Source: Bacillota bacterium
Lineage (GTDB): Bacteria > Bacillota > Clostridia > RUG12999
Length of the DNA stretch: 46,255 bases
Direction: 5' to 3'
NCBI GenBank assembly: GCA_030705675.1
Contig: JAUZPZ010000002.1
Coordinates: 1-46,255 of the forward strand
The notes beneath the pieces are model-generated. The model was not told where the DNA came from and did not search any database. It saw only the letters and a list, made by a program, of their open reading frames with translations. The stretch's first letter is position 1; the number at the start of each line of letters is the position of its first letter. The position numbers were made by a program, and so were the translations under genes. This document shows positions 2,133 to 46,255 of the stretch, in pieces.

Positions 2133-2969
2133 TTAATACTTATTTCTTACTTCGCTGATTTTTTTATTTACCCATTCTGGCTTAAGCCAGGATTTTTGAA
2201 ACTCATACCATTCCCGGTCGTATTTGCCTTTTTCATCCCGATATAACATTGCATACGGTGCAAACCCGGCTTTAATGGCCTGTGTCATACGCTCTTCCGC
2301 TTTTTCAAACGTATCGCCCTTGTACCCGATCAAGCAGTAACAGCACAAAGCCTTGCTTGCAACCGTAAACCCTGCGTCAATCATCATTCTCCCGGCGTAA
2401 ACCAAAGGTTCATAATCATCCGGCGTATCGTAGGCAAAATAGGCTCGTTTTGTTTTTATTTCTTTCATACGCTTACAGTGCCAAGGCTTTAATATTTTGG
2501 CTTCAAGCCCTCCGGTGAATTCCGGGTTTTCCTTTTGCCGTTCGAGCATGTCAAAAACTGCGTTAATGTGTTCATCGGAGCATTGCAGGAGGTTGCTGTC
2601 TATAATGTTGTAACCGTCCATGACCGGGATCTCCCTGATTGGCCCTTCGCGTTTCGGCACCATGCAAAACCAGCAATGGTTATTGCAACCCCTCGACGTC
2701 ATAACATAGCCTTGTTTTATGTACATACCCGGCGTAAATAAGTCGCCATAGGCGTCATAAGCGGGGCCGCCGACCTTTACCGGAACGCCTAAAACTGCCC
2801 ACTGGAAAGCAAATTCTTCTGCTATTGGCTTGTCGTATGTGAAAGTGCAGGAAACGTGTACTTCCTCGATTTCCGGCATCTCGTCAAGCCTCGGTGGACC
2901 ATTGAAAAAAACAAGATCATCGTCCGGCGTCGCTTTTGTTTTTCGTGGGAATATTCGCGCAATCCGCAT
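2133..2969 (-). CDS. Radical SAM enzyme of unknown substrate
   Basis: SRGCNNHCWFC matches the CxxxCxxC 4Fe-4S/SAM cluster motif. 278 aa, sitting between an HTH-like ORF and two MTases. Confidence 0.8.
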   Translation of the reverse strand: MRIARIFPRKTKATPDDDLVFFNGPPRLDEMPEIEEVHVSCTFTYDKPIAEEFAFQWAVLGVPVKVGGPAYDAYGDLFTPGMYIKQGYVMTSRGCNNHCWFCMVPKREGPIREIPVMDGYNIIDSNLLQCSDEHINAVFDMLERQKENPEFTGGLEAKILKPWHCKRMKEIKTKRAYFAYDTPDDYEPLVYAGRMMIDAGFTVASKALCCYCLIGYKGDTFEKAEERMTQAIKAGFAPYAMLYRDEKGKYDREWYEFQKSWLKPEWVNKKISEVRNKY

Positions 2970-3084
2970 TTTATTTTCCTTTCTGCCTCGGTGGTTAATT
3001 ATTCTTTGCCTGTTTTTTGCATTTCTGGCTTGTTTTTCCTCTGCCGTGTAATTTCACGTCTTTTGAGTTTTCTCCGCTCTACGG

Positions 3085-3375
3085 TCAAAAAATCGGGGTA
3101 GAAAACGTATGTTCGGAATGCCCTGAGTATTTTGTTTTTCTTTTTGGCAATATGGTGTTGTAGACTATTTCGTCGGTCTCGTCCCACCAGATTTCTTCTT
3201 TTAAAAATTTAACTCCCGATTTTCTACCGTTTGTTTTATTGCAAATACAAGTAATTACACTGTTCCTGGTAGTATGAAATTCTTTTGCCAAGTCGTTAAG
3301 ATGGTCTGCTATGAATAAAGGCAATTCGTATTTGTCGGCAGTAACAGCCATATAGATTTTCTTCTTTACTTGCAA
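3085..3375 (-). CDS. Hypothetical small HTH-like protein
   Basis: GGAGG followed by 7 nt and a TTG at 3375 (ATG alternatives at 3399 and 3351). Contains a YELPLFIADHLNDLAKEFHTTRNSV helix-turn-helix-like stretch. Confidence 0.5.
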   Translation of the reverse strand: MQVKKKIYMAVTADKYELPLFIADHLNDLAKEFHTTRNSVITCICNKTNGRKSGVKFLKEEIWWDETDEIVYNTILPKRKTKYSGHSEHTFSTPIF

Positions 3376-3827
3376 TTTTTTGCCTCCTTGTCTGTCCATT
3401 GGTTTTCGGATGTGTCAATTTCTTTAATCTCCGCAATAACCCTTGCTTCACGGCAAGTAAAGTATTTTTTAACACCGCCGTCTACGATCTGCACATCATC
3501 TTTGTAAGCAATGCCGTTAAGCGAATCCGCAACAATTTTCCCGATATTATCCCAATCTGGTTTTACCGTTGGTCTGATAATGTTGTGTTCAGCCGCTAGC
3601 CGTTTTCCTTTTGTAAACGATTTTGGAATTTCAAACAAAGCGTAAACTTCAATTTTTAGCGGTTTTGTGCCGTCAAACATTTTCCCGCCCTGCTGCTGGT
3701 AACAAAGCTTTACCCAATTTTCGTAGTTTGCTGTCTGCTCCGGCGTGTATGTAGTGACGTAGTTTCCGCGTCTGGCAAACTTCGGGCGGCCTTTTCCCTG
3801 GACTTTACCGATAATCTCAAACGTCAC
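3366..3827 (-). CDS. rusA: RusA-family Holliday-junction resolvase
   Basis: GKGRPKF...YTPEQT...KPDWDNIGKIVADSLNGIAYKDDVQI motifs are typical of RusA. Confidence 0.85.
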   Translation of the reverse strand: MTFEIIGKVQGKGRPKFARRGNYVTTYTPEQTANYENWVKLCYQQQGGKMFDGTKPLKIEVYALFEIPKSFTKGKRLAAEHNIIRPTVKPDWDNIGKIVADSLNGIAYKDDVQIVDGGVKKYFTCREARVIAEIKEIDTSENQWTDKEAKNCK

Positions 3828-10148: not shown

Positions 10149-10616
10149 CTATTGATTAGCCTTAAAAAAAGCTTGGGCGAATCCTGGAGGAGTTATGCTG
10201 CGCATCATTTTCGTATGTTCTGACTTCCCACCATAACAGCGCCATAGCTTGCTGCCTTCTGTTGGTTCAACCGGATTTTTCTTAGGCATGTTAAAGTTCC
10301 CCCATAAAAGAGTTTTCTTTGTGTATGTGTCACCGTAATCGCAAGGATTAAATATTAATGCCGGATTACCCATCCACCGGCGCAACCTTCCTACCGGATT
10401 TTCAAACGCCCAAAACACCGAATTGCTTGCTGCAATAATTGTCAGGCAGCGAATAACAACGCCCATGCTTTTAATCGTGCTGCCATCTATATCTTTGCCT
10501 GCCCACCACCTCGCACCGCTACCCGAAAAATCCGTACACGGTGGAGCTGCCAATATACCGTAAACATTCTCTGGTGGTTCATATGTAAGCACGTTGTATT
10601 CCGGCAACGTAATCAC
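10149..10616 (-). CDS. Compact DNA (cytosine-5) methyltransferase (coding sequence very likely extends to 10688)
   Basis: PPCTDFS (motif IV) and FENPVG (motif VI). The first canonical start is the GTG at 10616, but motif I ILDLCGGTGSW is encoded in frame at 10653-10688. Confidence 0.8.
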   Translation of the reverse strand: MITLPEYNVLTYEPPENVYGILAAPPCTDFSGSGARWWAGKDIDGSTIKSMGVVIRCLTIIAASNSVFWAFENPVGRLRRWMGNPALIFNPCDYGDTYTKKTLLWGNFNMPKKNPVEPTEGSKLWRCYGGKSEHTKMMRSITPPGFAQAFFKANQ

Positions 10617-11278: not shown

Positions 11279-11752
11279 TTAAATTTGAGATTCGTTTATA
11301 CGGCCGCTATTTTTTACGTCTTTTCGAGCAAGGCCGGTTAGAGATTGATAGCTTCTGCCGTGCAAGATATTAAGAATTGTTGTGTGGTCAACCCCAAAAA
11401 AGCCTCCTATGTACCTTAAAGATTTTCCTTTTGCGTGTAATTCAAAAACCATCATTACTTGATTAAAAGCAAGCTTTCTTGATGAATAATCTGGATGCAG
11501 CTTTTTGTAATCAGAAATCTTTCGTCTGGTTTCTTCCGTCGGATGCTTACCGGTCATATGGTGCCGCGCATGTTTTGATCGTGTCGTAAGCTCAAGATTT
11601 TCAGGATCATTGTTCTGCTTATCCTCGTCACCGTGATGAACGATCTCGCTAGATGTAAGTGGCCTGCCTAATTTTTCTTCCATCACAAGACGGTGAACAT
11701 CATGTTTAACACCGTGAACCTTTTTGCCTTGATAATACTTTCCGCTTCTCAT
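11279..11752 (-). CDS. HNH endonuclease with a C-terminal HTH
   Basis: HRLVMEEKLGRPL..EIVHHGDEDKQNNDPENLEL..SKHARHH HNH motif. The ATG at 11752 lies 4 nt after the upstream stop. Confidence 0.8.
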   Translation of the reverse strand: MRSGKYYQGKKVHGVKHDVHRLVMEEKLGRPLTSSEIVHHGDEDKQNNDPENLELTTRSKHARHHMTGKHPTEETRRKISDYKKLHPDYSSRKLAFNQVMMVFELHAKGKSLRYIGGFFGVDHTTILNILHGRSYQSLTGLARKDVKNSGRINESQI

Positions 11753-11756
11753 CCGG

Positions 11757-12011
11757 TTACTTCCCAAGCAATGTACTCGACATTTCGTCTTTTGGAATAT
11801 GTAACTTCTGAGACATTCTGGAAATTTCTTCAATCGTAAAATCTCCCGGTTCTTTTAAGCGGCGGTAAAAGGTTCCGCCAGACATACACAGTGCCGCGCA
11901 CAATTCCGGAACTTCTACCCCGGACAAATACAAATACTTTTTAATGGTTGCAATCAACAATGCGTCTCTTTCTTGGGTTGCGGTTTTGCGAAGTTTAGGA
12001 ATGGCCGCCAT
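11757..12011 (-). CDS. Hypothetical HTH-like early protein
   Basis: 84-aa ORF with an ELCAALCMSGGTFYRRLKEPGDFTIEEI HTH-like stretch. The start choice is uncertain. Confidence 0.45.
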   Translation of the reverse strand: MAAIPKLRKTATQERDALLIATIKKYLYLSGVEVPELCAALCMSGGTFYRRLKEPGDFTIEEISRMSQKLHIPKDEMSSTLLGK

Positions 12012-12231
12012 CTCCTTTCGCTTTTTTCTCTAATTCCGAAAGAATCTCATCAATATAACGTAAAATTCTTTCGTCCTTTTCGCCACGAGAATGACCGTTT
12101 ACGCATCGGCTCATGTCAGATTCAAAAATGCTTTCAAAAGGGTATTTTGCAATGATTTTACGCAATATATCAACCTGACTTGTTCCCGCGCGCAAGATAC
12201 GAATTTTTAACTCAATTCCTGGGATTATCAA
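11995..12231 (-). CDS. Cro-like XRE-family HTH protein (first early gene)
   Basis: AAAGGAG followed by 8 nt and a TTG at 12231. LKIRILRAGTSQVDILRKI HTH. Divergent from the repressor gene. Confidence 0.55.
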   Translation of the reverse strand: MIIPGIELKIRILRAGTSQVDILRKIIAKYPFESIFESDMSRCVNGHSRGEKDERILRYIDEILSELEKKAKGDGGHS

Positions 12232-12393
12232 CTTCCACACTCCTTTTTGACAAATTATGCAAATAGTAGTTGACAAGCGGCGTAAGCTGTAATATTGTAT
12301 AGGCGTCAACAAACACAATATTTTTTTGCTTTGCAATAAAGATTTGCAGGGCTACTTTTCCTATGCCGTGCGCCGCTATCAACTTATGGTTAT

Positions 12394-12422
12394 AGTATAA
12401 TTAGAATTTTTCTAAGTGTCAA
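12394..12422 (-). promoter_or_regulatory. Early (lytic) promoter TTGACA-17-TATACT
   Basis: -35 at 12417-12422 and -10 at 12394-12399 on the minus strand. The 17-nt spacer contains an operator palindrome. Confidence 0.7.
12401..12415. promoter_or_regulatory. Operator copy 1, palindrome TTAGAA-TTT-TTCTAA
   Basis: A 15-bp site with perfect 6-bp inverted arms, located inside the early-promoter spacer. Confidence 0.7.
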
Positions 12423-12430
12423 GGCTTAAC

Positions 12431-12445
12431 TTAGAATTTTTCTAA
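12431..12445. promoter_or_regulatory. Operator copy 2, identical 15-mer
   Basis: Exact repeat of 12401-12415, 30 bp away. A degenerate third copy (TTAGAAAAATTTGTA) lies at 12676-12690. Confidence 0.7.
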
Positions 12446-12508
12446 TTATTGTTGCATTGCACAAAAAACAACCCCGCATTTAGCGAGGTTGCACAAAGGA
12501 GATATATT

Positions 12509-12679
12509 ATGGTGCTGAATCAAGATTGTGCTCGTACACTTTTGTTTTATCTGGAAGACAATATAAAGCTTAATAATAGCGGTCAAGCTCAACCTTTGTA
12601 TTTAAGAGCATGCATCAATAAACCACCGTTAAATAATTATTCTCGTGATGATGTGCATACGGCTGCAAGATACAGTTAG
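12509..12679 (+). CDS. Hypothetical 56-aa protein upstream of the repressor
   Basis: AAGGAG RBS 8 nt before the ATG at 12509. Confidence 0.45.
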   Translation: MVLNQDCARTLLFYLEDNIKLNNSGQAQPLYLRACINKPPLNNYSRDDVHTAARYS

Positions 12680-12708
12680 AAAAATTTGTAGATAGGGGGG
12701 AAATGTAG

Positions 12709-13056
12709 ATGGATACAATTGATCGGATTTTTGATCTACTAGATAAATCTGGGGTTGAACAAAAAGAATTTGCAGAAGCAATAGGAACTACGCCAAACAA
12801 GGTAAGCGAATGGAAAGCAAGAAAAACAAAATCATACAACAAATATTTGCATAAAATAGCCAGTTTTTTTAATGTAGATATCAATTATTTATTGTGCGTA
12901 ACAGACGAAAAAAATAAGCCCACCGTAAATTACGATGAGCTTGATGACGAAACAAAAAAGAGTGTTGAAGTGCTTAAGAAGTTTTCTCCCAAATATCGTC
13001 AAGTTGTCTTAAAAATGCTTGAGGATCTTGCTGCTCACGAGAAAGGTCAAGAATAA
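12709..13056 (+). CDS. XRE-family (cI-like) repressor without a peptidase domain
   Basis: VEQKEFAEAIGTTPNKVSEWKARKTKSYNKYLHKIASFFNVDINYLL HTH_XRE signature; 115 aa. Confidence 0.8.
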   Translation: MDTIDRIFDLLDKSGVEQKEFAEAIGTTPNKVSEWKARKTKSYNKYLHKIASFFNVDINYLLCVTDEKNKPTVNYDELDDETKKSVEVLKKFSPKYRQVVLKMLEDLAAHEKGQE

Positions 13057-13147
13057 TTTTAACGTATTTTTTGGGATTGCGCACCGATTTTAAGATATCA
13101 AGATATCTTTGAATGTCTTTTTCCAGTTGTCTTTTCGGTTCGATCAT
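12974..13147 (-). CDS. Small ORF (57 aa) driven by the LexA-box promoter; candidate antirepressor
   Basis: AAAGGGG RBS 8 nt before the ATG at 13147. A strong promoter and a LexA box lie upstream. Its 3-prime 83 nt are antisense to the repressor gene. Confidence 0.45.
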   Translation of the reverse strand: MIEPKRQLEKDIQRYLDILKSVRNPKKYVKIILDLSREQQDPQAFLRQLDDIWEKTS

Positions 13148-13169
13148 GGCGCATACCCCTTTCATAAAT

Positions 13170-13189
13170 AGAACGTTTGTTCGAACAAA
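13170..13189. promoter_or_regulatory. Cheo-type LexA box AGAACGTTTGTTCG within the palindrome TTTGTTCGAACAAA
   Basis: GAAC-N4-GTTC at 13171-13182, and a perfect 14-bp palindrome at 13176-13189. It overlaps the predicted +1 of the promoter at 13194-13222. Confidence 0.6.
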
Positions 13190-13193
13190 TTTT

Positions 13194-13222
13194 ATTATAC
13201 TACCAGATTTTAGGCTTGTCTA
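13194..13222 (-). promoter_or_regulatory. Promoter TAGACA-17-TATAAT
   Basis: -35 at 13217-13222 and -10 at 13194-13199, read on the minus strand. Confidence 0.6.
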
Positions 13223-13250: not shown

Positions 13251-13799
13251 ATGAACGACTATATCAATATTCCAGCTATGGATGATGAAGAACTTTTGAA
13301 AATTTGGGATGCCCGAAAAGAATATCGAGAAGAAATTATTGATGAAGTTGTTGACGAAATTAAAAAACGAGATTTGGACAAAAAGAAAGACAATTGTATT
13401 GATCTAGATGCCGCAATACGGCAGCAAAAAGAATGCCCTAATTTTAAAAGTAAGAATAAATTTTCAAAAAATAAATACTATTCAAAAAATTTTTTTCCTA
13501 TTTCTATAATTATAGCTAGTTTTTTTATATCAACCGGGTTAGCTTTGCTTGCGCTATCTAATAGATTTTATATTGATTCTGCCACATCTAATAAAGTAGA
13601 TAGACTTACCGGAAAAGTTGAAAAAATAGACAAACAAAATGAAAGATACATAACAAACGTGACAAATCCCAATAAAGGCACAACGAAAATCGTAATTTTT
13701 GATAAAGAAACCGATAAGTTTTATGTTTATACGTGCGATACTTTTAGCAGAAAAGCTGAATTTGATGTTTATTTTGCAACAAAAAGTATTGGAAAATAA
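13251..13799 (+). CDS. Single-pass membrane protein (candidate superinfection-exclusion / lysogenic-conversion gene)
   Basis: 182 aa with a central TM helix (FFPISIIIASFFISTGLALLAL). The gene is visibly AT-rich and sits between the repressor and integrase. Confidence 0.6.
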   Translation: MNDYINIPAMDDEELLKIWDARKEYREEIIDEVVDEIKKRDLDKKKDNCIDLDAAIRQQKECPNFKSKNKFSKNKYYSKNFFPISIIIASFFISTGLALLALSNRFYIDSATSNKVDRLTGKVEKIDKQNERYITNVTNPNKGTTKIVIFDKETDKFYVYTCDTFSRKAEFDVYFATKSIGK

Positions 13800-14054
13800 A
13801 AAAAGACAGTTTCAACAACTGCCTGATTAGACGACGAGATGTCTCGCTAAATTACAACTGGCAGTCATAGGTTATCCCCTTAGACCCTATAGCTTTGCGC
13901 CCTTACCTTTCGGTATGTTTGCCGAATATTTAATTGTATATCTAGCGAATTTGTTACATTTACATAATAATACTATGTTTTGCCAATTACAACAAATATT
14001 TTAATATTATATAAAACAAACGCAAGCAATGGTTTTGGAAGAAGGGGTTTGCTT

Positions 14055-15110
14055 ATGCCCAAAGCAAAAAAATTGCCAAGTGGCAGTTGGTATATTCAAG
14101 TATCAACGGGGAAAAAAGAAAAAGGGAAATATAAATATGAATCTCGGGCTTTCCCCTCAAAAGAAGAAGCCGAATTTTGGGCCGCTGAATATAATTTACA
14201 TAAAACAAACATATCTAAATCTCTTACCAATTTAACGTTGGAAGAAGCCATGACACGATATATAGAAAGTAAAGACTGCGTGTTGTCGCCATCGACTATC
14301 GCCGGTTATAAAAAACTTAAAAAGAATTGTTTGCAGGGGTTAATGAAAATTAAATTAAATAAAATTACCCAGGAGATGATCCAGAAAGAAATCAATGCAA
14401 TGGCAAAGGATCACGCCTCAAAATATGTAAGCAATGCACACGGGCTATTAAATTCGGTATTTAAGGAATATTATCCAGACTTTACGCTTAAGACTGCTTT
14501 ACCGCAAAAACAACCATACAGCGCAAATATACCGGCAACAAATGAGATTGAACTTATTATTAAAGCTGTAAAAGATACGTCAATAGAATTGCCTGTTCTG
14601 TTGGCGCTGTGGCAAGGAATGAGAATGTCTGAAATAAGGGGCATTAAATGGGATTCGATAAAAGGCGACATGCTTCACATCAAAACAGCAATAGTTGACG
14701 CAGAAAATAAAGCCGTTGAAAAGGGAACAAAAACGGTCGCAAGCAATAGAAAAATTAAGTTGCCCAATTATCTCCTTGACCTAATAAAAAAGCAGCCGAA
14801 GAATAATGAGTTTATTGTAACGTTATCCGGACAAGCAATTTATAAAAGGTTTACAAGGCTTTGCGAAAAGGAAGGTCTTCCACATTATCGTTTTCACGAC
14901 TTACGCCATACAAATGCATCTGTTATGCTTGCGTTGAAAATACCAGACAAATACGCAATGGAGCGCGGAGGATGGGCCACAAACAACACATTAAAAACGG
15001 TTTATCAACACACAATGTCAGACGAAAGAAAGATTGTAGACGATAAAGTCAACACCTATTTTGAAAGCTTATTATCATACAAATTATCACACGATGTTTC
15101 CAATGTGTAG
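14055..15110 (+). CDS. int: Tyrosine site-specific integrase
   Basis: GMRMSEIRGIKW (Arg), FHDLRHT (HxxR) and GGW...VYQHT (Tyr). GGAAGAAGGGG RBS before the ATG at 14055. Confidence 0.9.
   Translation: MPKAKKLPSGSWYIQVSTGKKEKGKYKYESRAFPSKEEAEFWAAEYNLHKTNISKSLTNLTLEEAMTRYIESKDCVLSPSTIAGYKKLKKNCLQGLMKIKLNKITQEMIQKEINAMAKDHASKYVSNAHGLLNSVFKEYYPDFTLKTALPQKQPYSANIPATNEIELIIKAVKDTSIELPVLLALWQGMRMSEIRGIKWDSIKGDMLHIKTAIVDAENKAVEKGTKTVASNRKIKLPNYLLDLIKKQPKNNEFIVTLSGQAIYKRFTRLCEKEGLPHYRFHDLRHTNASVMLALKIPDKYAMERGGWATNNTLKTVYQHTMSDERKIVDDKVNTYFESLLSYKLSHDVSNV
15071..15094. repeat. Arm-type repeat pair (ATTATCAYA x2) inside the int 3-prime end
   Basis: The 24-mer attatcatacaaattatcacacga recurs at 15321-15344 with one mismatch. 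Confidence 0.7.
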
Positions 15111-15574: not shown

Positions 15575-15904
15575 TTATTCATCTGATCTATCTGATTTTG
15601 AAAAAAGATATCCAACAATTCCCGCTACAATAAATTTTAAGACTTCGAACAAAGGAACTTTTAACTCACTACTCGAATGAAAAAATGTATCGAATACAAA
15701 CATAGCTCCAAGAATTGCAAGACATATGTATAACATCCTACGGGCTTGTCCTTCGCAGAAAAGCCTCATTTTTTGTGCTGGAGTTAAAGCATCTTTAATT
15801 GTGGGATTCAGCATTGGATAGTTGTCTGGTGGTATATCAATGCCTTCATGCTCTTCGCAAGGAATAACTTGAGATTTTTCTTCGGCAACCAATATTAAAC
15901 CCAA
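15575..15904 (-). CDS. Small two-TM membrane protein; candidate toxin partner of the Panacea protein
   Basis: Overlaps the upstream gene by 10 nt. An acidic N-terminus is followed by two hydrophobic helices. The start is uncertain (TTG at 15904 or ATG at 15814). Confidence 0.55.
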   Translation of the reverse strand: MGLILVAEEKSQVIPCEEHEGIDIPPDNYPMLNPTIKDALTPAQKMRLFCEGQARRMLYICLAILGAMFVFDTFFHSSSELKVPLFEVLKFIVAGIVGYLFSKSDRSDE

Positions 15905-16341
15905 CTTTCTGATTTAATATCTTCATCATTTAAGAACAATTCTCCTTTAAGATTTGCTTTATCCCAAGCGCTTCCAGCTTGATGAGTTTTAGATGAAAGT
16001 TGAATCGCCCCTTCATCTTTATATCTATCCCAAATTTGATTTATTACTTGAGAAAAAGCGGAATTTCCTCTCAAATCATAAACTTTTGCTTTTCCTTCTT
16101 CACCGATGTAATAATTAAGGATAGGGCTTGCGCAATAATGCTTAAAACAATTGTAAACGCATGAAAGAACAGGGCCGTATTTCCATGCTTCAAATCGCTC
16201 CGAGAATAATGGATTCCCAGTACGTTTTAAATATTCCCGATACACTAAATAAATCAACTTTTGCAGTTTCATTGGCGTTACAGGAATATTATCTTGGAAT
16301 GCTCTTTGCAAAATGGTATTAGATATCAATAATACATCCAT
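15895..16341 (-). CDS. Panacea / DUF4065-domain protein (SocA/PanA-like antitoxin candidate)
   Basis: PMKLQKLIYLVYREYLKRTGNPLFSERFEAWKYGPVLSCVY matches the DUF4065 core. AAGGAGG RBS before the ATG at 16341. Confidence 0.75.
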   Translation of the reverse strand: MDVLLISNTILQRAFQDNIPVTPMKLQKLIYLVYREYLKRTGNPLFSERFEAWKYGPVLSCVYNCFKHYCASPILNYYIGEEGKAKVYDLRGNSAFSQVINQIWDRYKDEGAIQLSSKTHQAGSAWDKANLKGELFLNDEDIKSESWV

Positions 16342-16381
16342 AATATATTCCTCCTTATAAAACAAGCTTAATTTCATTAAC

Positions 16382-16410
16382 ATCTTACCAAGATTAGCCA
16401 TGAAAATCAA
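16382..16410 (-). promoter_or_regulatory. Promoter TTGATT-17-TAAGAT for the Panacea cassette
   Basis: -35 at 16405-16410 and -10 at 16382-16387 on the minus strand, just downstream of the lysis terminator. Confidence 0.55.
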
Positions 16411-16517: not shown

Positions 16518-17021
16518 TTATTTTAATCTCGTCTTGAACGCCGCCCAAGCTGCCGGGTTGTTGACATACGGCGCTGGGCAGATTTTACCCATTACGTCAT
16601 AGTGGCGAATGACGTGATCGACGGGAATGCCGTACTTCGTCATAAGTTCCTTTGTCAGCGCCTCGGCCTGGTAAATTGTCGCGTCGTCAAAATACCAATT
16701 GCCTTTACTGTCGATATGGCAGCACATTTCAATGCCTATGCTGTTTGAATTGCGGCAGAAAGGATGCTTGTACTTTTTCGCCCCGCAGTGCCACGCGGTA
16801 TTTTCCGGCGCCACGCTTTGATATACCGCGGCGTTTTCACCTTTATGCCCGACAAAGAAATGCGCCGACGCCTGACGGTCCGGGTGATTGTGATAATATT
16901 GCACGTTTTGCAAAGCGGTTCCGGTGCCGCCTGTGTAGTGAATCACTATGTATTCAATTTTTCGAGGCCGCCCAGGCGTGTAAAATCCCGTTTTGCAGGG
17001 ATAGCTTTTATTTATATTCAT
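16518..17021 (-). CDS. Endolysin, N-acetylmuramoyl-L-alanine amidase (Amidase_2/PGRP type)
   Basis: YIVIHYTGG...ASAHFFV...TAWHCG...NSIGIEMC zinc-amidase motifs. No wall-binding domain is apparent. Confidence 0.9.
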   Translation of the reverse strand: MNINKSYPCKTGFYTPGRPRKIEYIVIHYTGGTGTALQNVQYYHNHPDRQASAHFFVGHKGENAAVYQSVAPENTAWHCGAKKYKHPFCRNSNSIGIEMCCHIDSKGNWYFDDATIYQAEALTKELMTKYGIPVDHVIRHYDVMGKICPAPYVNNPAAWAAFKTRLK

Positions 17022-41200: not shown

Positions 41201-41794
41201 TTATGCGAATCTCCAAATATATCCTCCGGATGTTTTTGTTTTTCCGTATAAACATTGCCGTAGTGCACCTTTGTCTATTTTTAGTATTCTTGCTGCGTCA
41301 ATGGCTCCATCCCATTTTTTTATTTTATTTCCGCATAAGTCAAACTGAATTATTGGCTTTTTCTGTTTTTCTGCTTTTGCCTTATAATCTATTTTTTCCG
41401 TTCTTTTTTTGATATCAGTGTGAATCAACCTTCTTTTTATCCCGTCGTTATAAGTGTTATTTTCTGAATATGTTGCCCATTCAAGATTTTCAATTCTGTT
41501 ATTTCTTTTGTTTTCATCTTTGTGGTTTATTGTTGGCTTGTTTTCCGGATTTGCTAGAAATGTTTCCGCAACTAAACGATGCGCATATTTATAAATTTTG
41601 CATCCATCCATACAGAGCAAATATTGAACATATCCGCTTTTGTGGTTTATTCTTTCTTTTAGAGTACTTCCATTTACGATTCTTCGCTTTCCATTTCTAC
41701 ATAAGACTTCCATCTCTAGGCTTCTAAGTCTTCCATAATTGCTGACTTGATATCTCCCGCCAAATCCCTTTACATCTTTCCATGTCTCTTGCAT
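41201..41794 (-). CDS. HNH homing-type endonuclease (NUMOD4 + HNH_3)
   Basis: WKDVKGFGGRYQVSNYGRLRS (NUMOD4) and AHRLVAETF..INHKDENKRNNRIENLEW (HNH). Confidence 0.85.
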   Translation of the reverse strand: MQETWKDVKGFGGRYQVSNYGRLRSLEMEVLCRNGKRRIVNGSTLKERINHKSGYVQYLLCMDGCKIYKYAHRLVAETFLANPENKPTINHKDENKRNNRIENLEWATYSENNTYNDGIKRRLIHTDIKKRTEKIDYKAKAEKQKKPIIQFDLCGNKIKKWDGAIDAARILKIDKGALRQCLYGKTKTSGGYIWRFA

Positions 41795-41916
41795 CTTAAT
41801 CAATCCTTTCTTTCAATCCTTTTTTTAAGCATAGAAAAGGGACAGGCGATTGATTCTCCTGCCCCACGGTTTATAACTCCGTCTATGCTAGTAACGCTAA
41901 TGCGTAACCGTTTTTA

Positions 41917-43536: not shown

Positions 43537-44235
43537 CTAAGTAACAGAGCCATTCGGATTGATACATGTTTTGCCTCCCTCAGTGGCAATTTCCCCGGCG
43601 CAAGCCTTAATACCTAAAAGTGCATCCAGTTCTCTCCACCCGTGATTAATTCTCCAAGATATTCGGCGAGGGCTTTCTCCTAAATACTCTCCCCACTCTG
43701 ACAAAGTTTTGTCCATTCCCATATATTTGATTTTATGATTGCTTCTCATGTTGTTTTTCTGCTCTTTTTCAGTAGCCCATTTGCAATTTTCAGGTGAATA
43801 ACCAAGATTTACATTTATTCTGTCAATAGATAAATAATCAGCGTATCCGTTGCGTGAAGCCCATTCATAAAATGCCTCAAAATTATCTTCCCATTCTTTA
43901 CAAACCTTGATTCCACGGCCGCCATAATGTTTGTAAATTGATGAAGATGGATTATTGCACCGCTTTTTCATCCCGCACCAAATTTGATACAATCTTGTTT
44001 TGCTTTTTCCATGAGTAGACATTAAATTTCTTAAAGTTTCTTTTCTGCTACATCCGCAAGATTTTGTATTTCCGCTTCGTAATAAATATCCCTTTACCGT
44101 AACAACATTCCCGCAATCGCACCGGCATTCCCATTTTGCGAACACACATCCGTTAGGTGAAACAGAATTTTCTGCTCTTTTTATTACGGTAAGCCTTCCG
44201 TATTTATTCCCCGTTATATCAATCACTTTTGCCAT
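43537..44235 (-). CDS. Conserved phage protein with a CxCxC zinc ribbon and an AP2-like YGGRGI module
   Basis: WECRCDCGN...SCGCS and RLYQIWCGMKKRCNNP..YKHYGGRGIKVCKEW. Confidence 0.55.
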   Translation of the reverse strand: MAKVIDITGNKYGRLTVIKRAENSVSPNGCVFAKWECRCDCGNVVTVKGYLLRSGNTKSCGCSRKETLRNLMSTHGKSKTRLYQIWCGMKKRCNNPSSSIYKHYGGRGIKVCKEWEDNFEAFYEWASRNGYADYLSIDRINVNLGYSPENCKWATEKEQKNNMRSNHKIKYMGMDKTLSEWGEYLGESPRRISWRINHGWRELDALLGIKACAGEIATEGGKTCINPNGSVT

Positions 44236-44533
44236 TACTCGCCAACTCCCCTGCGCAACTTAGATATCCGCAACCATCCACATAATTATCATCCTTGGTC
44301 TGTCCGCTTGCTATGCGCCCGATTTTGAGCAATGCTTGCATAATAGCAACATCATCCGCTTTGATCTTCACTGGTACTCCATAAGTGCCGTGTATGGATA
44401 ATCCTTTTCCATAAATATAAGCAGTCCATAAATCAGCTATCGTCTGAAAGTTATCTTCTGGACTTCCGTACTGCTGTTCTCTGTCGGTGCATACTGTGTC
44501 TGAAGCTGTTTTTAATATTTCTGCCCTTTTCAT
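44219..44533 (-). CDS. DUF6378-like protein
   Basis: REQQYGSPEDNFQTIADLW...DDVAIMQALLKIGR pattern. Confidence 0.5.
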   Translation of the reverse strand: MKRAEILKTASDTVCTDREQQYGSPEDNFQTIADLWTAYIYGKGLSIHGTYGVPVKIKADDVAIMQALLKIGRIASGQTKDDNYVDGCGYLSCAGELASNGKSD

Positions 44534-44838
44534 TTCATACCTCCGTCATAAATAACTTCTTTGTTGTTACATAACGCATAATTAAATTCTTCAAAGCACC
44601 CGGTTGATTGTTTCCAGTTTCCACACATGGCGATAGCGTCACATATGCTAAGCAGCCTGTACGATATATCCATAGCCTCGGCATAGCTCGATTCCGGATT
44701 AATAACCTCTAACGGATTAATAACGTGGTAGCCCTGCTTCTTATACTTGTCCGCAAATTGCCTTGCTTGTTGACGGTTTTCTTCGATGTCGCCGCAAGAA
44801 GTACAAGGGTGGGAAATATATATCAGCCTATTCGTCAT
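44530..44838 (-). CDS. DUF4406 / nucleoside 2-deoxyribosyltransferase-superfamily protein
   Basis: LIYISHP...GYHVINPLE...LSICDAIAMCGNWKQSTGCFEEFNYA. GGAGGGAGAGGG RBS before the ATG at 44838. Confidence 0.6.
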   Translation of the reverse strand: MTNRLIYISHPCTSCGDIEENRQQARQFADKYKKQGYHVINPLEVINPESSYAEAMDISYRLLSICDAIAMCGNWKQSTGCFEEFNYALCNNKEVIYDGGMK

Positions 44839-45025
44839 TCCTGCCCTCTCCCTCCGTTCGGCGGCTCCATGCGGCGATGGCATCTTTTTCGCTAGGGGCC
44901 CATACTGTTGCCCCGCAGTTTGTGCAATACACGTTGTGAAAAAAATCGTCCAATCTATCTTCTTCTTCAAGCATTATTCTTGCCTTTCCCCCGCAGAACG
45001 GGCACGCTTTCAACTCACTCATCAA
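44828..45025 (-). CDS. Lar-family restriction-alleviation protein
   Basis: LKACPFCGG...VYCTNCGA...EKDAIAAWSRR matches the Lar_restr_allev pattern. Confidence 0.7.
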   Translation of the reverse strand: MMSELKACPFCGGKARIMLEEEDRLDDFFHNVYCTNCGATVWAPSEKDAIAAWSRRTEGEGRNDE

Positions 45026-45206: not shown

Positions 45207-45336
45207 GGTCGGCCTCCTTTAAATTTATGAACAGAGGTTTACACTTCTTTATTTGGTCAATAAATTTATCTTTGTTTTTACTGTTGGGATTTTTGCATTT
45301 ATCAGAGCTAAACCGGCAATTATAGCACTTCTTCAT
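45199..45336 (-). CDS. Hypothetical Cys-rich 45-aa protein (below the track cutoff)
   Basis: ATGA overlap with the stop of 45333-46067. MKKCYNCRFSSDKCKNP. Confidence 0.4.
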   Translation of the reverse strand: MKKCYNCRFSSDKCKNPNSKNKDKFIDQIKKCKPLFINLKEADHE

Positions 45337-46067
45337 CTATCGCCCCTCCTCCAATCCGCGCCGTGCCATTCAATTCTAGCGTCTTTTGCACATTCCCAAG
45401 ATATAGGGATTACCCCAAGGCAAACATACCCCTCTGGTACATATGGCACGTCACGTAAGCAATAAGTGACTTGTTTGTAGTGGCTGTTCCCTTTGTCGTA
45501 TTCTCCGTCCCACTCGTAAAGATGCAAAATATCTCCTACTGCATAATTTCGATCATCCTTGCGAATCTCAAATGTTTTTTCTCCGGTCGCGCTGGCGTCA
45601 TAATACGGCTGTACAGTTTTCAGATGGTGTGTTGTGCCGCTATATTCCACTGGGAGAATTTCGTCAAAATCATCTCTGCATCGACGCTTGTATTTCCGCG
45701 CCGCCGCATCCCGTTCCGCTCTTGTCTGCTCAAGCTCGGCGCGGAGGCGGGAGTTTTCGGCTAACAGCTTTGCACATTGCGATTTTTCAAAATCATTCAG
45801 CTCATCGTAAGCGGCTTGAAGCCTCTCCACTTCCTCGCATTTTGCTTCGTAGGCTTTGATCAGCGCGGGGATGTCTTCACGTGCATGGGCGATAAATGCG
45901 GCATTGCCTGTCTTTGGACTCATATTCGGGCATATCATTTGTTGCGGGCTATTATCAAAAGCGACCGAAACAACAGCGAACGATTTTACTGTGTTCCCTT
46001 TGTCTATTACTTTCCACGGTCCCGGCGTTGCCTTGTCCGCTCTATCTTTGATCTCTTTAAGATTCAT
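45333..46067 (-). CDS. Ead/Ea22-like N-terminal domain fused to a DUF3850 (ASCH/PUA-like) domain
   Basis: LKEIKDRADKATPGPW (Ea22-like), and HHLKTVQPYYDASATGEKTFEIRKDDRNYAVGDILHLYEWD (DUF3850). Confidence 0.65.
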   Translation of the reverse strand: MNLKEIKDRADKATPGPWKVIDKGNTVKSFAVVSVAFDNSPQQMICPNMSPKTGNAAFIAHAREDIPALIKAYEAKCEEVERLQAAYDELNDFEKSQCAKLLAENSRLRAELEQTRAERDAAARKYKRRCRDDFDEILPVEYSGTTHHLKTVQPYYDASATGEKTFEIRKDDRNYAVGDILHLYEWDGEYDKGNSHYKQVTYCLRDVPYVPEGYVCLGVIPISWECAKDARIEWHGADWRRGDR

Positions 46068-46239
46068 AATCTTCCTGCCTTTCTCCATCGTGCGCATAAC
46101 CTTGCTTTTGTTTGCGCCTGTTTACCCTGTTCAGATATTGCTTTGCCCACTTAAACCATCCAGGGCTAATGCAAAAAATACCTTTATGATGCAACCTATC
46201 GGCAATTTCAGCTTCCTTGCCTAAAAGCTTACGGCTCAT
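46057..46239 (-). CDS. Hypothetical protein spanning the circular junction
   Basis: Its start at 46239 corresponds to position 125 of the left repeat copy and overlaps the stop of 115-441 by 11 nt. Confidence 0.45.
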   Translation of the reverse strand: MSRKLLGKEAEIADRLHHKGIFCISPGWFKWAKQYLNRVNRRKQKQGYAHDGERQEDYES

Positions 46240-46255
46240 TTGGTAGCCGCCTTTC
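46115..46255. repeat. Right copy of the 141-bp exact terminal direct repeat
   Basis: Identical to 1-141. Confidence 0.95.

Follow-up and report, generated by a model that had tools for sequence, protein, structure and literature searches.

The contig JAUZPZ010000002.1 (assembly GCA_030705675.1; Bacillota, Clostridia, RUG12999), analyzed here over its whole length of 46,255 nucleotides (nt) and referred to below as the window, carries beside the gene of a short XRE-family repressor a compact cassette made up of a strong minus-strand promoter, a LexA box, a 57-amino-acid (aa) open reading frame (ORF) and an intrinsic terminator. With about even confidence, we interpret this cassette as a DNA damage-gated (SOS/LexA) antirepressor unit that would resemble the AimX antirepressors of Bacillus phages while being free of arbitrium signaling. 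The locus had been singled out in an original prediction, which proposed an SOS-gated small effector convergent with an uncleavable repressor and acting as an antirepressor or as an antisense switch. The core of that idea agrees with all of our in silico checks; the antisense half is the less likely mechanism, because in the Bacillus systems the effect comes from the protein and not from the antisense RNA.

Promoter and LexA box of the small ORF

The small ORF is preceded by a sigma-A-type promoter (TAGACA-17-TATAAT; 13194..13222, minus strand), found where the original prediction had placed it and matching the consensus at 11 of 12 positions. Only four sites with a match of at least 11/12 occur on the two strands of the 46-kb window. 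Judging from the position of the -10 hexamer, transcription would start near 13187/13186, so that the LexA (Cheo/SOS) box at 13170-13183 (AGAACGTTTGTTCG; CGAACAAACGTTCT on the transcribed strand) would cover about +4 to +17 of the predicted start region, a position where a bound repressor would block initiation. On the transcribed strand, the box matches CGAAC-N4-GTTCG at 13 of 14 positions, and its first base lies 10 nt past the -10 hexamer. In Bacillus and Clostridium, LexA is documented to use GAAC-N4-GTTC/T as its operator (PMC4234289), and LexA is predicted to bind at 13170-13183.

The single occurrence of GAAC-N4-GTTC in the window, another claim of the original prediction, was borne out by our search. 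Taken alone, such a box is unremarkable: the expectation is 0.54 per window, and at least one is found in 40% of shuffled sequences. A box with a perfect core, positioned anywhere from the spacer to +35 relative to a promoter of at least 11/12, is expected only 0.0007 to 0.0013 times per window, and the combination of promoter and LexA box is non-random.

A perfect 14-bp palindrome (TTTGTTCGAACAAA; 13176-13189), one of two such palindromes in the window, is also present. The box had been thought to lie inside it, which is incorrect: the two overlap by 8 nt, on the right half of the box, and the palindrome contributes a third GAAC half-site immediately next to the box (GAAC-GTTT-GTTC-GAAC). No operators of the TTAGAATTTTTCTAA type, the presumed binding sites of the XRE repressor described below, were found near the small-ORF promoter. 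Degenerate GAAC-N4-GTTT sites number three in the window, which is the chance level; for this reason, the LexA-like site GAACAGAGGTTT (45229-45240, plus strand), located in a 362-nt gap between the ORFs at 44530-44970 and 45333-46097 in the early/middle region, is probably not meaningful.

The 57-aa ORF and its transcript

The candidate antirepressor gene (12974..13147, minus strand; MIEPKRQLEK...IWEKTS), with ATG 13147 as its start and its final 83 nt antisense to the XRE 3' end, is placed as originally described, and so is its Shine-Dalgarno (SD) sequence (GAAAGGGG; 13156..13163, minus strand), which we find 8 nt before the start. A further ATG upstream, at 13165 (63 aa), lacks an SD. On the same strand, an intrinsic terminator that the original prediction did not mention, located at 12916..12942 with a 12-bp stem, a run of seven U and a folding energy of -15.3 kcal/mol (z-score, -4.25; 0 of 200 shuffles fold as well), falls within the linker-coding part of the XRE gene; no U-tract follows this stem on the plus strand. 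Since the terminator lies just 32 nt past the ORF stop, the promoter, operator, SD, ORF and terminator together form a discrete, self-contained predicted transcript of about 270 nt, overlapping the XRE gene by 141 nt.

Several properties of the ORF are those of a gene. Its codon-usage log-likelihood ratio (LLR) is 0.196, compared with a gene mean of 0.199 (33 training genes), which places it at the 99th percentile of 125 shadow ORFs (mean, -0.10; standard deviation, 0.115), and the 30 codons outside the XRE overlap score 0.183. Furthermore, the helical hydrophobic moment of the product (1.45) is the highest among the 64 ATG-started ORFs of 45 to 75 aa in all six frames (0.86 ± 0.16), and its 160-degree moment is average. 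AlphaFold2 (AF2), run on the single sequence, models a near-neutral three-helix bundle (residues 4-21, 25-38 and 42-56; mean predicted local distance difference test [pLDDT] score, 79) without a helix-turn-helix (HTH). Taken together, codon usage, amphipathic helicity and the AF2 model suggest that the ORF is probably translated.

A structure search with this three-helix model in PDB and BFVD returned nothing below E = 2, and the PDB sequence matches of the protein are designed helical repeats, reflecting composition only. In a set of 5.8 billion protein clusters, the ORF is not called as a gene in its own contig. Two apparent matches in IMG/VR proved spurious, as both correspond to the N terminus of a 280-aa tail-region protein, and the idea that the small protein mimics the repressor C terminus was discarded for lack of sequence similarity (E 2.5).

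Repressor, operators and lytic promoter

The XRE repressor (12709-13056, plus strand) is 115 aa long and, as the original prediction had it, is without an S24 domain, HTH_3 and HTH_26 being its only Pfam matches. In its AF2 secondary structure, which is of low pLDDT, a five-helix HTH (residues 3-61) is followed by a linker and two C-terminal helices (80-90 and 94-113). A comparison with 50,697 phage records gave as its best full-length relatives the repressors of Bacillus phages vB_BceS-MY192, vB_BanS-A16R4 and PHBA67-J, with 31% identity over 111 aa (tblastn, E = 7e-7). By these similarities, the protein reads as a prophage repressor resembling AimC. In the three Bacillus phages, the repressor module runs in the order AimR (PF22871), AimP (ending in ...DIKPGG), terminator, convergent 42- to 44-aa ORF, repressor and divergent Cro-like small regulator, a gene order that identifies it as the "extended arbitrium" architecture.

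Two identical copies of TTAGAATTTTTCTAA (12401-12415 and 12431-12445), the only exact copies in the window, lie on or beside an early lytic promoter (TTGACA-17-TATACT; 12394..12422, minus strand) that is itself among the four sites of at least 11/12. These are the presumed operators, to which the XRE protein would bind, and an operator-flanked lytic promoter opposite the XRE gene is a standard divergent genetic switch. The first early gene behind this promoter (11995..12231, minus strand; 78 aa, TTG start, SD AAAGGAG) has no Pfam match, an HTH included, and no similarity to the AimL of MY192, and is followed by recombination and replication genes; its position suggests a Cro role. Between the XRE gene and the switch region, there is a second minus-strand intrinsic terminator (12468..12492; -17 kcal/mol), which would insulate the lytic promoter against antisense read-through and which makes sense only if minus-strand transcription truly traverses the repressor gene.

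No convincing plus-strand promoter for the XRE gene was found between the operators and the XRE start. The best plus-strand candidate, TTGACA-17-TATTGT at 12270-12298, stands face-to-face with the lytic promoter. A 56/76-aa ORF located 5' of the XRE gene (12510-12679) has a strongly non-coding codon usage (LLR, -0.51), and consequently the stretch from 12449 to 12708 probably serves as a long leader and does not encode a protein. Downstream, no plus-strand terminator separates the XRE gene from the next gene, ORF182, and XRE-ORF182-int is probably a lysogenic operon that contains the small-ORF promoter.

Other known induction devices were also sought in the window. PHROG and Pfam scans revealed no Ant, KilA, BRO or M78 proteins among its ORFs; tblastn with two AimR proteins gave nothing below E 0.46; tblastn with three ImmA proteins was negative, and no ORF has an M78 match; and no homologues of the Bacillus AimX, AimL or ImmA were detected (best tblastn E, 0.09). 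Without the small-ORF cassette, the phage would have no recognizable induction device.

Similarities to AimX-AimC and other antirepressor systems

AimC repressors have 80 to 140 aa, lack an autocleavage domain, and join an HTH through an unstructured linker to a helical oligomerization domain (Kabel et al., bioRxiv 10.1101/2025.11.23.689978). According to the same study, AimX proteins (29 to 80 aa) are highly divergent and mostly helical, are encoded convergently to aimC, sometimes overlapping it, and act as antirepressors by preventing AimC oligomerization and operator binding. In phages phiW23 and phi106, stop-codon alleles lose function and recoded alleles keep it, so that the protein is the effector and the antisense RNA is dispensable (bioRxiv 10.1101/2025.11.23.689978). 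In phi106, a LexA site just 5' of the 29-aa AimX ORF, which overlaps aimC by 30 bp, confers induction by mitomycin C; a lexA(ind-) allele abolishes this induction, and mutation of the box derepresses the promoter (bioRxiv 10.1101/2021.09.20.460909).

The locus geometry of the window matches each element of phi106, including a LexA box immediately 5' of the small ORF. As in AimX-AimC systems, a short HTH repressor without autocleavage domain (115 aa in the window), organized as HTH, linker and helical C terminus, is combined with a divergent lytic promoter and a gene in the Cro position, as well as with a tiny, helical, fast-evolving ORF that is convergent with the repressor gene and overlaps its 3' end. 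Additionally, the XRE protein is a detectable AimC homologue (31% identity), aligning over its full length with the AimC of MY192 and PHBA67-J. Very few AimC homologues have been reported outside arbitrium systems (bioRxiv 10.1101/2025.11.23.689978). The tiny product and the antisense overlap, to which the original prediction drew attention, are both typical of AimX and nothing out of the ordinary.

There are also clear differences. The window has no aimR or aimP, and the gene upstream of its small ORF is ORF182, on the opposite strand; lacking AimR and AimP, the module is outside the arbitrium family proper. A near-consensus sigma-A promoter is dedicated to the small ORF of the window, which would make LexA its sole gate instead of a partner of AimR. 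In comparison with phi106, the ORF is longer (57 versus 29 aa), the overlap is larger (83 versus 30 nt) and the sequences are unrelated. Moreover, the window phage is not a Bacillus phage, and a dedicated terminator lies within its repressor gene. By analogy, the module probably works like AimX-AimC, in an arbitrium-free and LexA-only form in a non-Bacillus phage.

Coliphage 186 Tum, the Gifsy antirepressors and N15 AntC are LexA-controlled antirepressors of Gram-negative phages, and the first two were the parallel drawn originally. The logic would indeed be alike, with a repressor that cannot be cleaved being inactivated by another protein, expressed from a LexA-repressed promoter; nevertheless, these phages use a different motif (CTGT-N8-ACAG) and unrelated proteins, and their antirepressor genes lie elsewhere, neither convergent nor overlapping with the repressor gene, so that AimX-AimC is the closest analogue. 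The ImmR/ImmA pairs (ICEBs1, Listeria MpaR; Peptidase_M78) likewise accompany XRE repressors lacking S24 in Firmicute elements. In contrast, the window has no M78 protease, and, as a 57-aa helical protein cannot be a protease, inactivation of the repressor would be stoichiometric and not proteolytic. In phage GIL01, the small protein gp7, which is reported to bind LexA (PMC4551915), acts together with host LexA boxes to control the lysogeny-lysis switch of a Gram-positive phage. GIL01 differs in having no CI-like repressor and in the role of gp7 as a LexA co-repressor, whereas the window encodes an XRE repressor with its own operators.

Relatives of the repressor and their induction devices

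The N-terminal domain of the repressor has relatives with 40 to 53% identity in the bacterial genomes of Oscillibacter, Dysosmobacter, Flavonifractor and a Lachnospiraceae metagenome-assembled genome, that is, in Oscillospiraceae and Lachnospiraceae. From this distribution, the phage host is probably a member of the Clostridia.

The loci of these and other relatives (designated L001 to L013) carry different genes at or near the repressor. One repressor has a fused S24 domain (L010, 218 aa), and in L013 and phage Roos (L007) an ImmA-like gene adjoins the repressor on the same strand. In L001, a GAAC-N4-GTTT box is located about 96 nt 5' of an ImmA gene adjoining the repressor. Convergent small ORFs are found in several others. 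The nearest relative (L002) has one of 43 aa. Two Oscillibacter prophages (L009 and L012) share a 34-aa ORF (3326-3430, minus strand) with a strong SD and a 38-nt overlap with the repressor 3' end. Between these two, the promoter/-10 region, the 5' untranslated region and the SD are nearly identical, the sequence further upstream is unrelated, and the coding part diverges with its frame kept open (3 synonymous and 9 non-synonymous codon differences); the ORF, which has no LexA box, is likely to be an antirepressor gene that has escaped calling. In the human fecal phage contig MT836154 (L005), a 33-aa ORF with an SD, a consensus promoter (TTGACT-16-TGTATAAT) and a terminator (2895-3075, minus strand) is convergent with a homologous short repressor. 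With no AimR in the vicinity, it represents a further small-ORF module free of arbitrium.

In Flavonifractor plautii (L011), the convergent gene encodes a Peptidase_M78/ImmA protein, and the spacer of its TTGCAA-17-TATAAT promoter is occupied by a perfect LexA box (AGAACAGATGTTCT). Thus, at least one relative has the same LexA motif at a device in the same convergent position. Across these loci, the slot directly 3' of the repressor gene appears to hold an interchangeable induction device, be it a small ORF, a LexA-boxed ImmA or a fused S24 domain.

The Flavonifractor promoter is part of a larger structure. On the scaffold of strain ATCC 29863, positions 1518-1550 form a 34-bp near-perfect palindrome (TTGCAATTATAGAAC-AGAT-GTTCTATAATTGCAA) consisting of two overlapping, back-to-back TTGCAA-17-TATAAT promoters, with one LexA box common to both spacers. 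One of the promoters drives the Peptidase_M78/ImmA gene convergent with the XRE repressor, and the other a 281-aa gene.

Proposed switch and alternative explanations

In the lysogen, the 115-aa XRE repressor would occupy the two operators at the lytic promoter, and host LexA, seated on the box at about +4 to +17, would shut the strong and otherwise constitutive promoter of the unit lying tail-to-tail with the repressor gene. DNA damage would lead to RecA-stimulated self-cleavage of LexA, opening the small-ORF promoter and allowing synthesis of the transcript of about 270 nt that would end at the terminator within the repressor gene. The 57-aa three-helix product would then bind the C-terminal oligomerization helices of the repressor, blocking its dimerization and operator binding; once the repressor is titrated, the lytic promoter would fire and the early lytic operon would be derepressed. 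A secondary effect in cis might come from the overlap of this transcript with the repressor mRNA and from transcription running head-on into XRE-ORF182-int. The 57-aa protein and the XRE repressor were each modeled as a single chain, and the contact proposed between them would follow the AimX-AimC example.

A number of observations weigh against this interpretation. The LexA consensus applied is that of Bacillus and Clostridium, and a host LexA of this specificity is presumed. None of the convergent small ORFs of the relatives has a LexA box. No homologues of the 57/63-aa ORF were found in a word-indexed search of 5.8 billion protein clusters, in an exhaustive phmmer search over 1.84 billion cluster representatives, or in tblastn against GenBank phages together with a back-translated DNA scan of JGI metagenomes. 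Peptides rich in K, E and L that are encoded by AT-rich DNA can appear helical to AF2, and the PDB sequence matches are de novo designed helical proteins. The C-terminal domain of the XRE protein, taken alone, is only weakly similar to AimC (E 0.036). The XRE and ORF182 genes are near-orphans, and the collections searched yielded no orthologous locus with which to compare the LexA site, the promoter and the ORF. Among the sequencing runs searched, none contains the phage, and a single run (X1) yielded one near-identical 233-nt piece covering the riboswitch described below and the start of int.

Other explanations of the same locus have to be considered. The cassette could be a chance co-occurrence in AT-rich intergenic DNA, with a promoter-like string, a GAAC-N4-GTTC and an antisense ORF that are all non-functional. 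The expectation of 0.54 single boxes per window, the abundance of promoter-like strings in AT-rich DNA (13 versus 8.9 expected in a 1.9-kb region) and the lack of orthologous loci in which conservation could be seen are all compatible with this. The joint expectation of about 0.001, even before the SD, the ORF statistics, the matching terminator and the functionally sensible location are counted, makes it very improbable. More improbable still, to the point that we give it hardly any credit, is an action of LexA on the plus strand, as a roadblock or attenuator between XRE and ORF182-int that would let the membrane protein and the integrase be made only after damage. The box does lie between XRE and ORF182, with no plus-strand terminator or promoter nearby; however, it coincides exactly with the region where a minus-strand promoter of near-consensus sequence would start transcription. 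LexA roadblocking is not known as an established mechanism.

If the cassette is a functional unit, its effector could be the RNA or transcription itself, the ORF being incidental: either the SOS-induced transcript would pair with the final 141 nt of the mRNA of the repressor, or polymerases moving head-on from the strong promoter would knock down XRE-ORF182-int. Such an effect would suit the extent of the ORF and transcript overlaps (83 and 141 nt), the position of the promoter inside the probable lysogenic operon, with no plus-strand terminator between XRE and ORF182, and the orphan status of the ORF. Nevertheless, the SD, the gene-like codon usage and the extreme amphipathic periodicity argue for a protein, the terminator keeps the antisense transcript from reaching beyond the 3' third of the XRE gene, and phiW23 and phi106 can do without the antisense RNA, as their stop and recoded alleles demonstrate; we consider this alternative decidedly unlikely. 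Unlikely as well, to a lesser degree, is a genuine LexA-repressed small gene with another role; its product might modulate LexA or RecA after the fashion of GIL01 gp7, serve as an excision or recombination directionality factor, or be directed at the host during the SOS phase. The evidence from promoter, box and ORF applies equally to such a gene, its location in the int-proximal lysogeny module would fit, and LexA-controlled small phage proteins with other roles are known, GIL01 gp7, with its reported binding to LexA (PMC4551915), being one. On the other hand, the phage would then be without an identifiable induction device, the position and orientation of the ORF match those of AimX and of the convergent devices of the relatives, and its predicted product is a near-neutral three-helix bundle with no HTH.

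An antirepressor expressed under LexA control is therefore the reading we prefer. To our knowledge, how DNA damage is sensed by phages with short, uncleavable XRE repressors is unexplained for most Firmicute phages. AimX-AimC has so far been tied to arbitrium signaling in Bacillus; the window suggests that the core of a repressor and a small convergent antirepressor exists without arbitrium, reduced to direct gating by LexA. Judging from the relatives, this arbitrium-free core may also be present in phages of gut Clostridia. If the switch is confirmed, induction triggers could be found by looking for a small ORF that is preceded by an SD and convergent with a repressor gene, a type of ORF missed by gene callers and homology searches, and a compact SOS-responsive switch would become available.

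A c-di-GMP-I riboswitch upstream of the small ORF

Some 650 nt upstream of the small antirepressor gene, on the same strand, lies a cyclic di-GMP (c-di-GMP)-I riboswitch aptamer (RF01051; 13850..13933, minus strand), which is the only Rfam match in the window and scores 60.7 bits over the full-length model, compared with a gathering score of 35. The aptamer sits between ORF182 and int, points away from int and reads antisense into ORF182. It is preceded by a promoter-like site (13964..13992, minus strand) and followed by an intrinsic terminator of the expression platform (13804..13824, minus strand) 26 nt past the aptamer. The near-identical 233-nt contig from run X1 differs by C13906G and G13913C, a compensatory exchange of C-G for G-C in an aptamer hairpin. 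Forcing an antiterminator costs 5.4 kcal/mol relative to the minimum free energy structure, and c-di-GMP might turn the riboswitch either on or off. No c-di-GMP-I riboswitch was found in the repressor relatives or in known phages.

Between the riboswitch platform and the small ORF (to 12942), we found no credible ORF and no further minus-strand terminator, and therefore riboswitch read-through would run antisense through ORF182 into the 57-aa ORF. A two-input device, in which the small antirepressor gene is controlled by both its LexA-gated promoter and the c-di-GMP riboswitch, seems to us possible but rather unlikely, the link between the two being positional. If it were true, the lysis-lysogeny switch would be coupled, through one tiny antirepressor, to DNA damage and to host c-di-GMP, that is, to the motile-sessile state; a c-di-GMP riboswitch connected in this way would feed a physiological signal of a new kind into a lysogeny switch.

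Phage genome context

The terminal 141 bp of the contig are identical (positions 1-141 and 46115-46255), and hence the contig closes into a circle of about 46.1 kb, which is the genome of a temperate phage and not a prophage inside host DNA. Its G+C content is about 42%, and nearly all genes are on the minus strand. The sole plus-strand block is the lysogeny module, which is AT-rich (33% G+C) and comprises, in addition to the XRE gene, ORF182, encoding a 182-aa membrane protein (13251-13799, plus strand), and a tyrosine integrase gene (int; about 14055-15110, plus strand). Neither the XRE, ORF182 and integrase genes nor DNA similarity led to loci orthologous to the cassette; distant or partial relatives were all that these searches returned.

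The early genes run leftward from 12336 and include the Cro-position gene, HNH endonucleases, methyltransferases, an exonuclease, RecT, a DnaD-like loader, a DnaB-like helicase and RusA. Genes for packaging, morphogenesis and lysis also run leftward, beginning at the far end of the window (about 38 kb) and reaching down to 15.6 kb; the large terminase has 46% identity to terminases of Bacillus, Staphylococcus and Faecalibacterium phages, and an amidase endolysin is encoded at 16518-17021.

For a phage of 46 kb, the load of homing-endonuclease and anti-restriction genes is unusually heavy. There are three HNH endonuclease genes (11279-11833, 41201-41803 and 43537-44235, all on the minus strand) and no fewer than four genes, or fragments of genes, for DNA methyltransferases, including those at 769-1260, 1289-2071 and 10149-10616. 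Finally, between the endolysin and the region of the phage attachment site (attP) and int, two genes overlap (15575-16410, minus strand), one of 171 aa with a SocA/Panacea domain (PF13274) and one of 109 aa for which a membrane segment is predicted; the two may constitute a toxin-antitoxin-like or defense pair.

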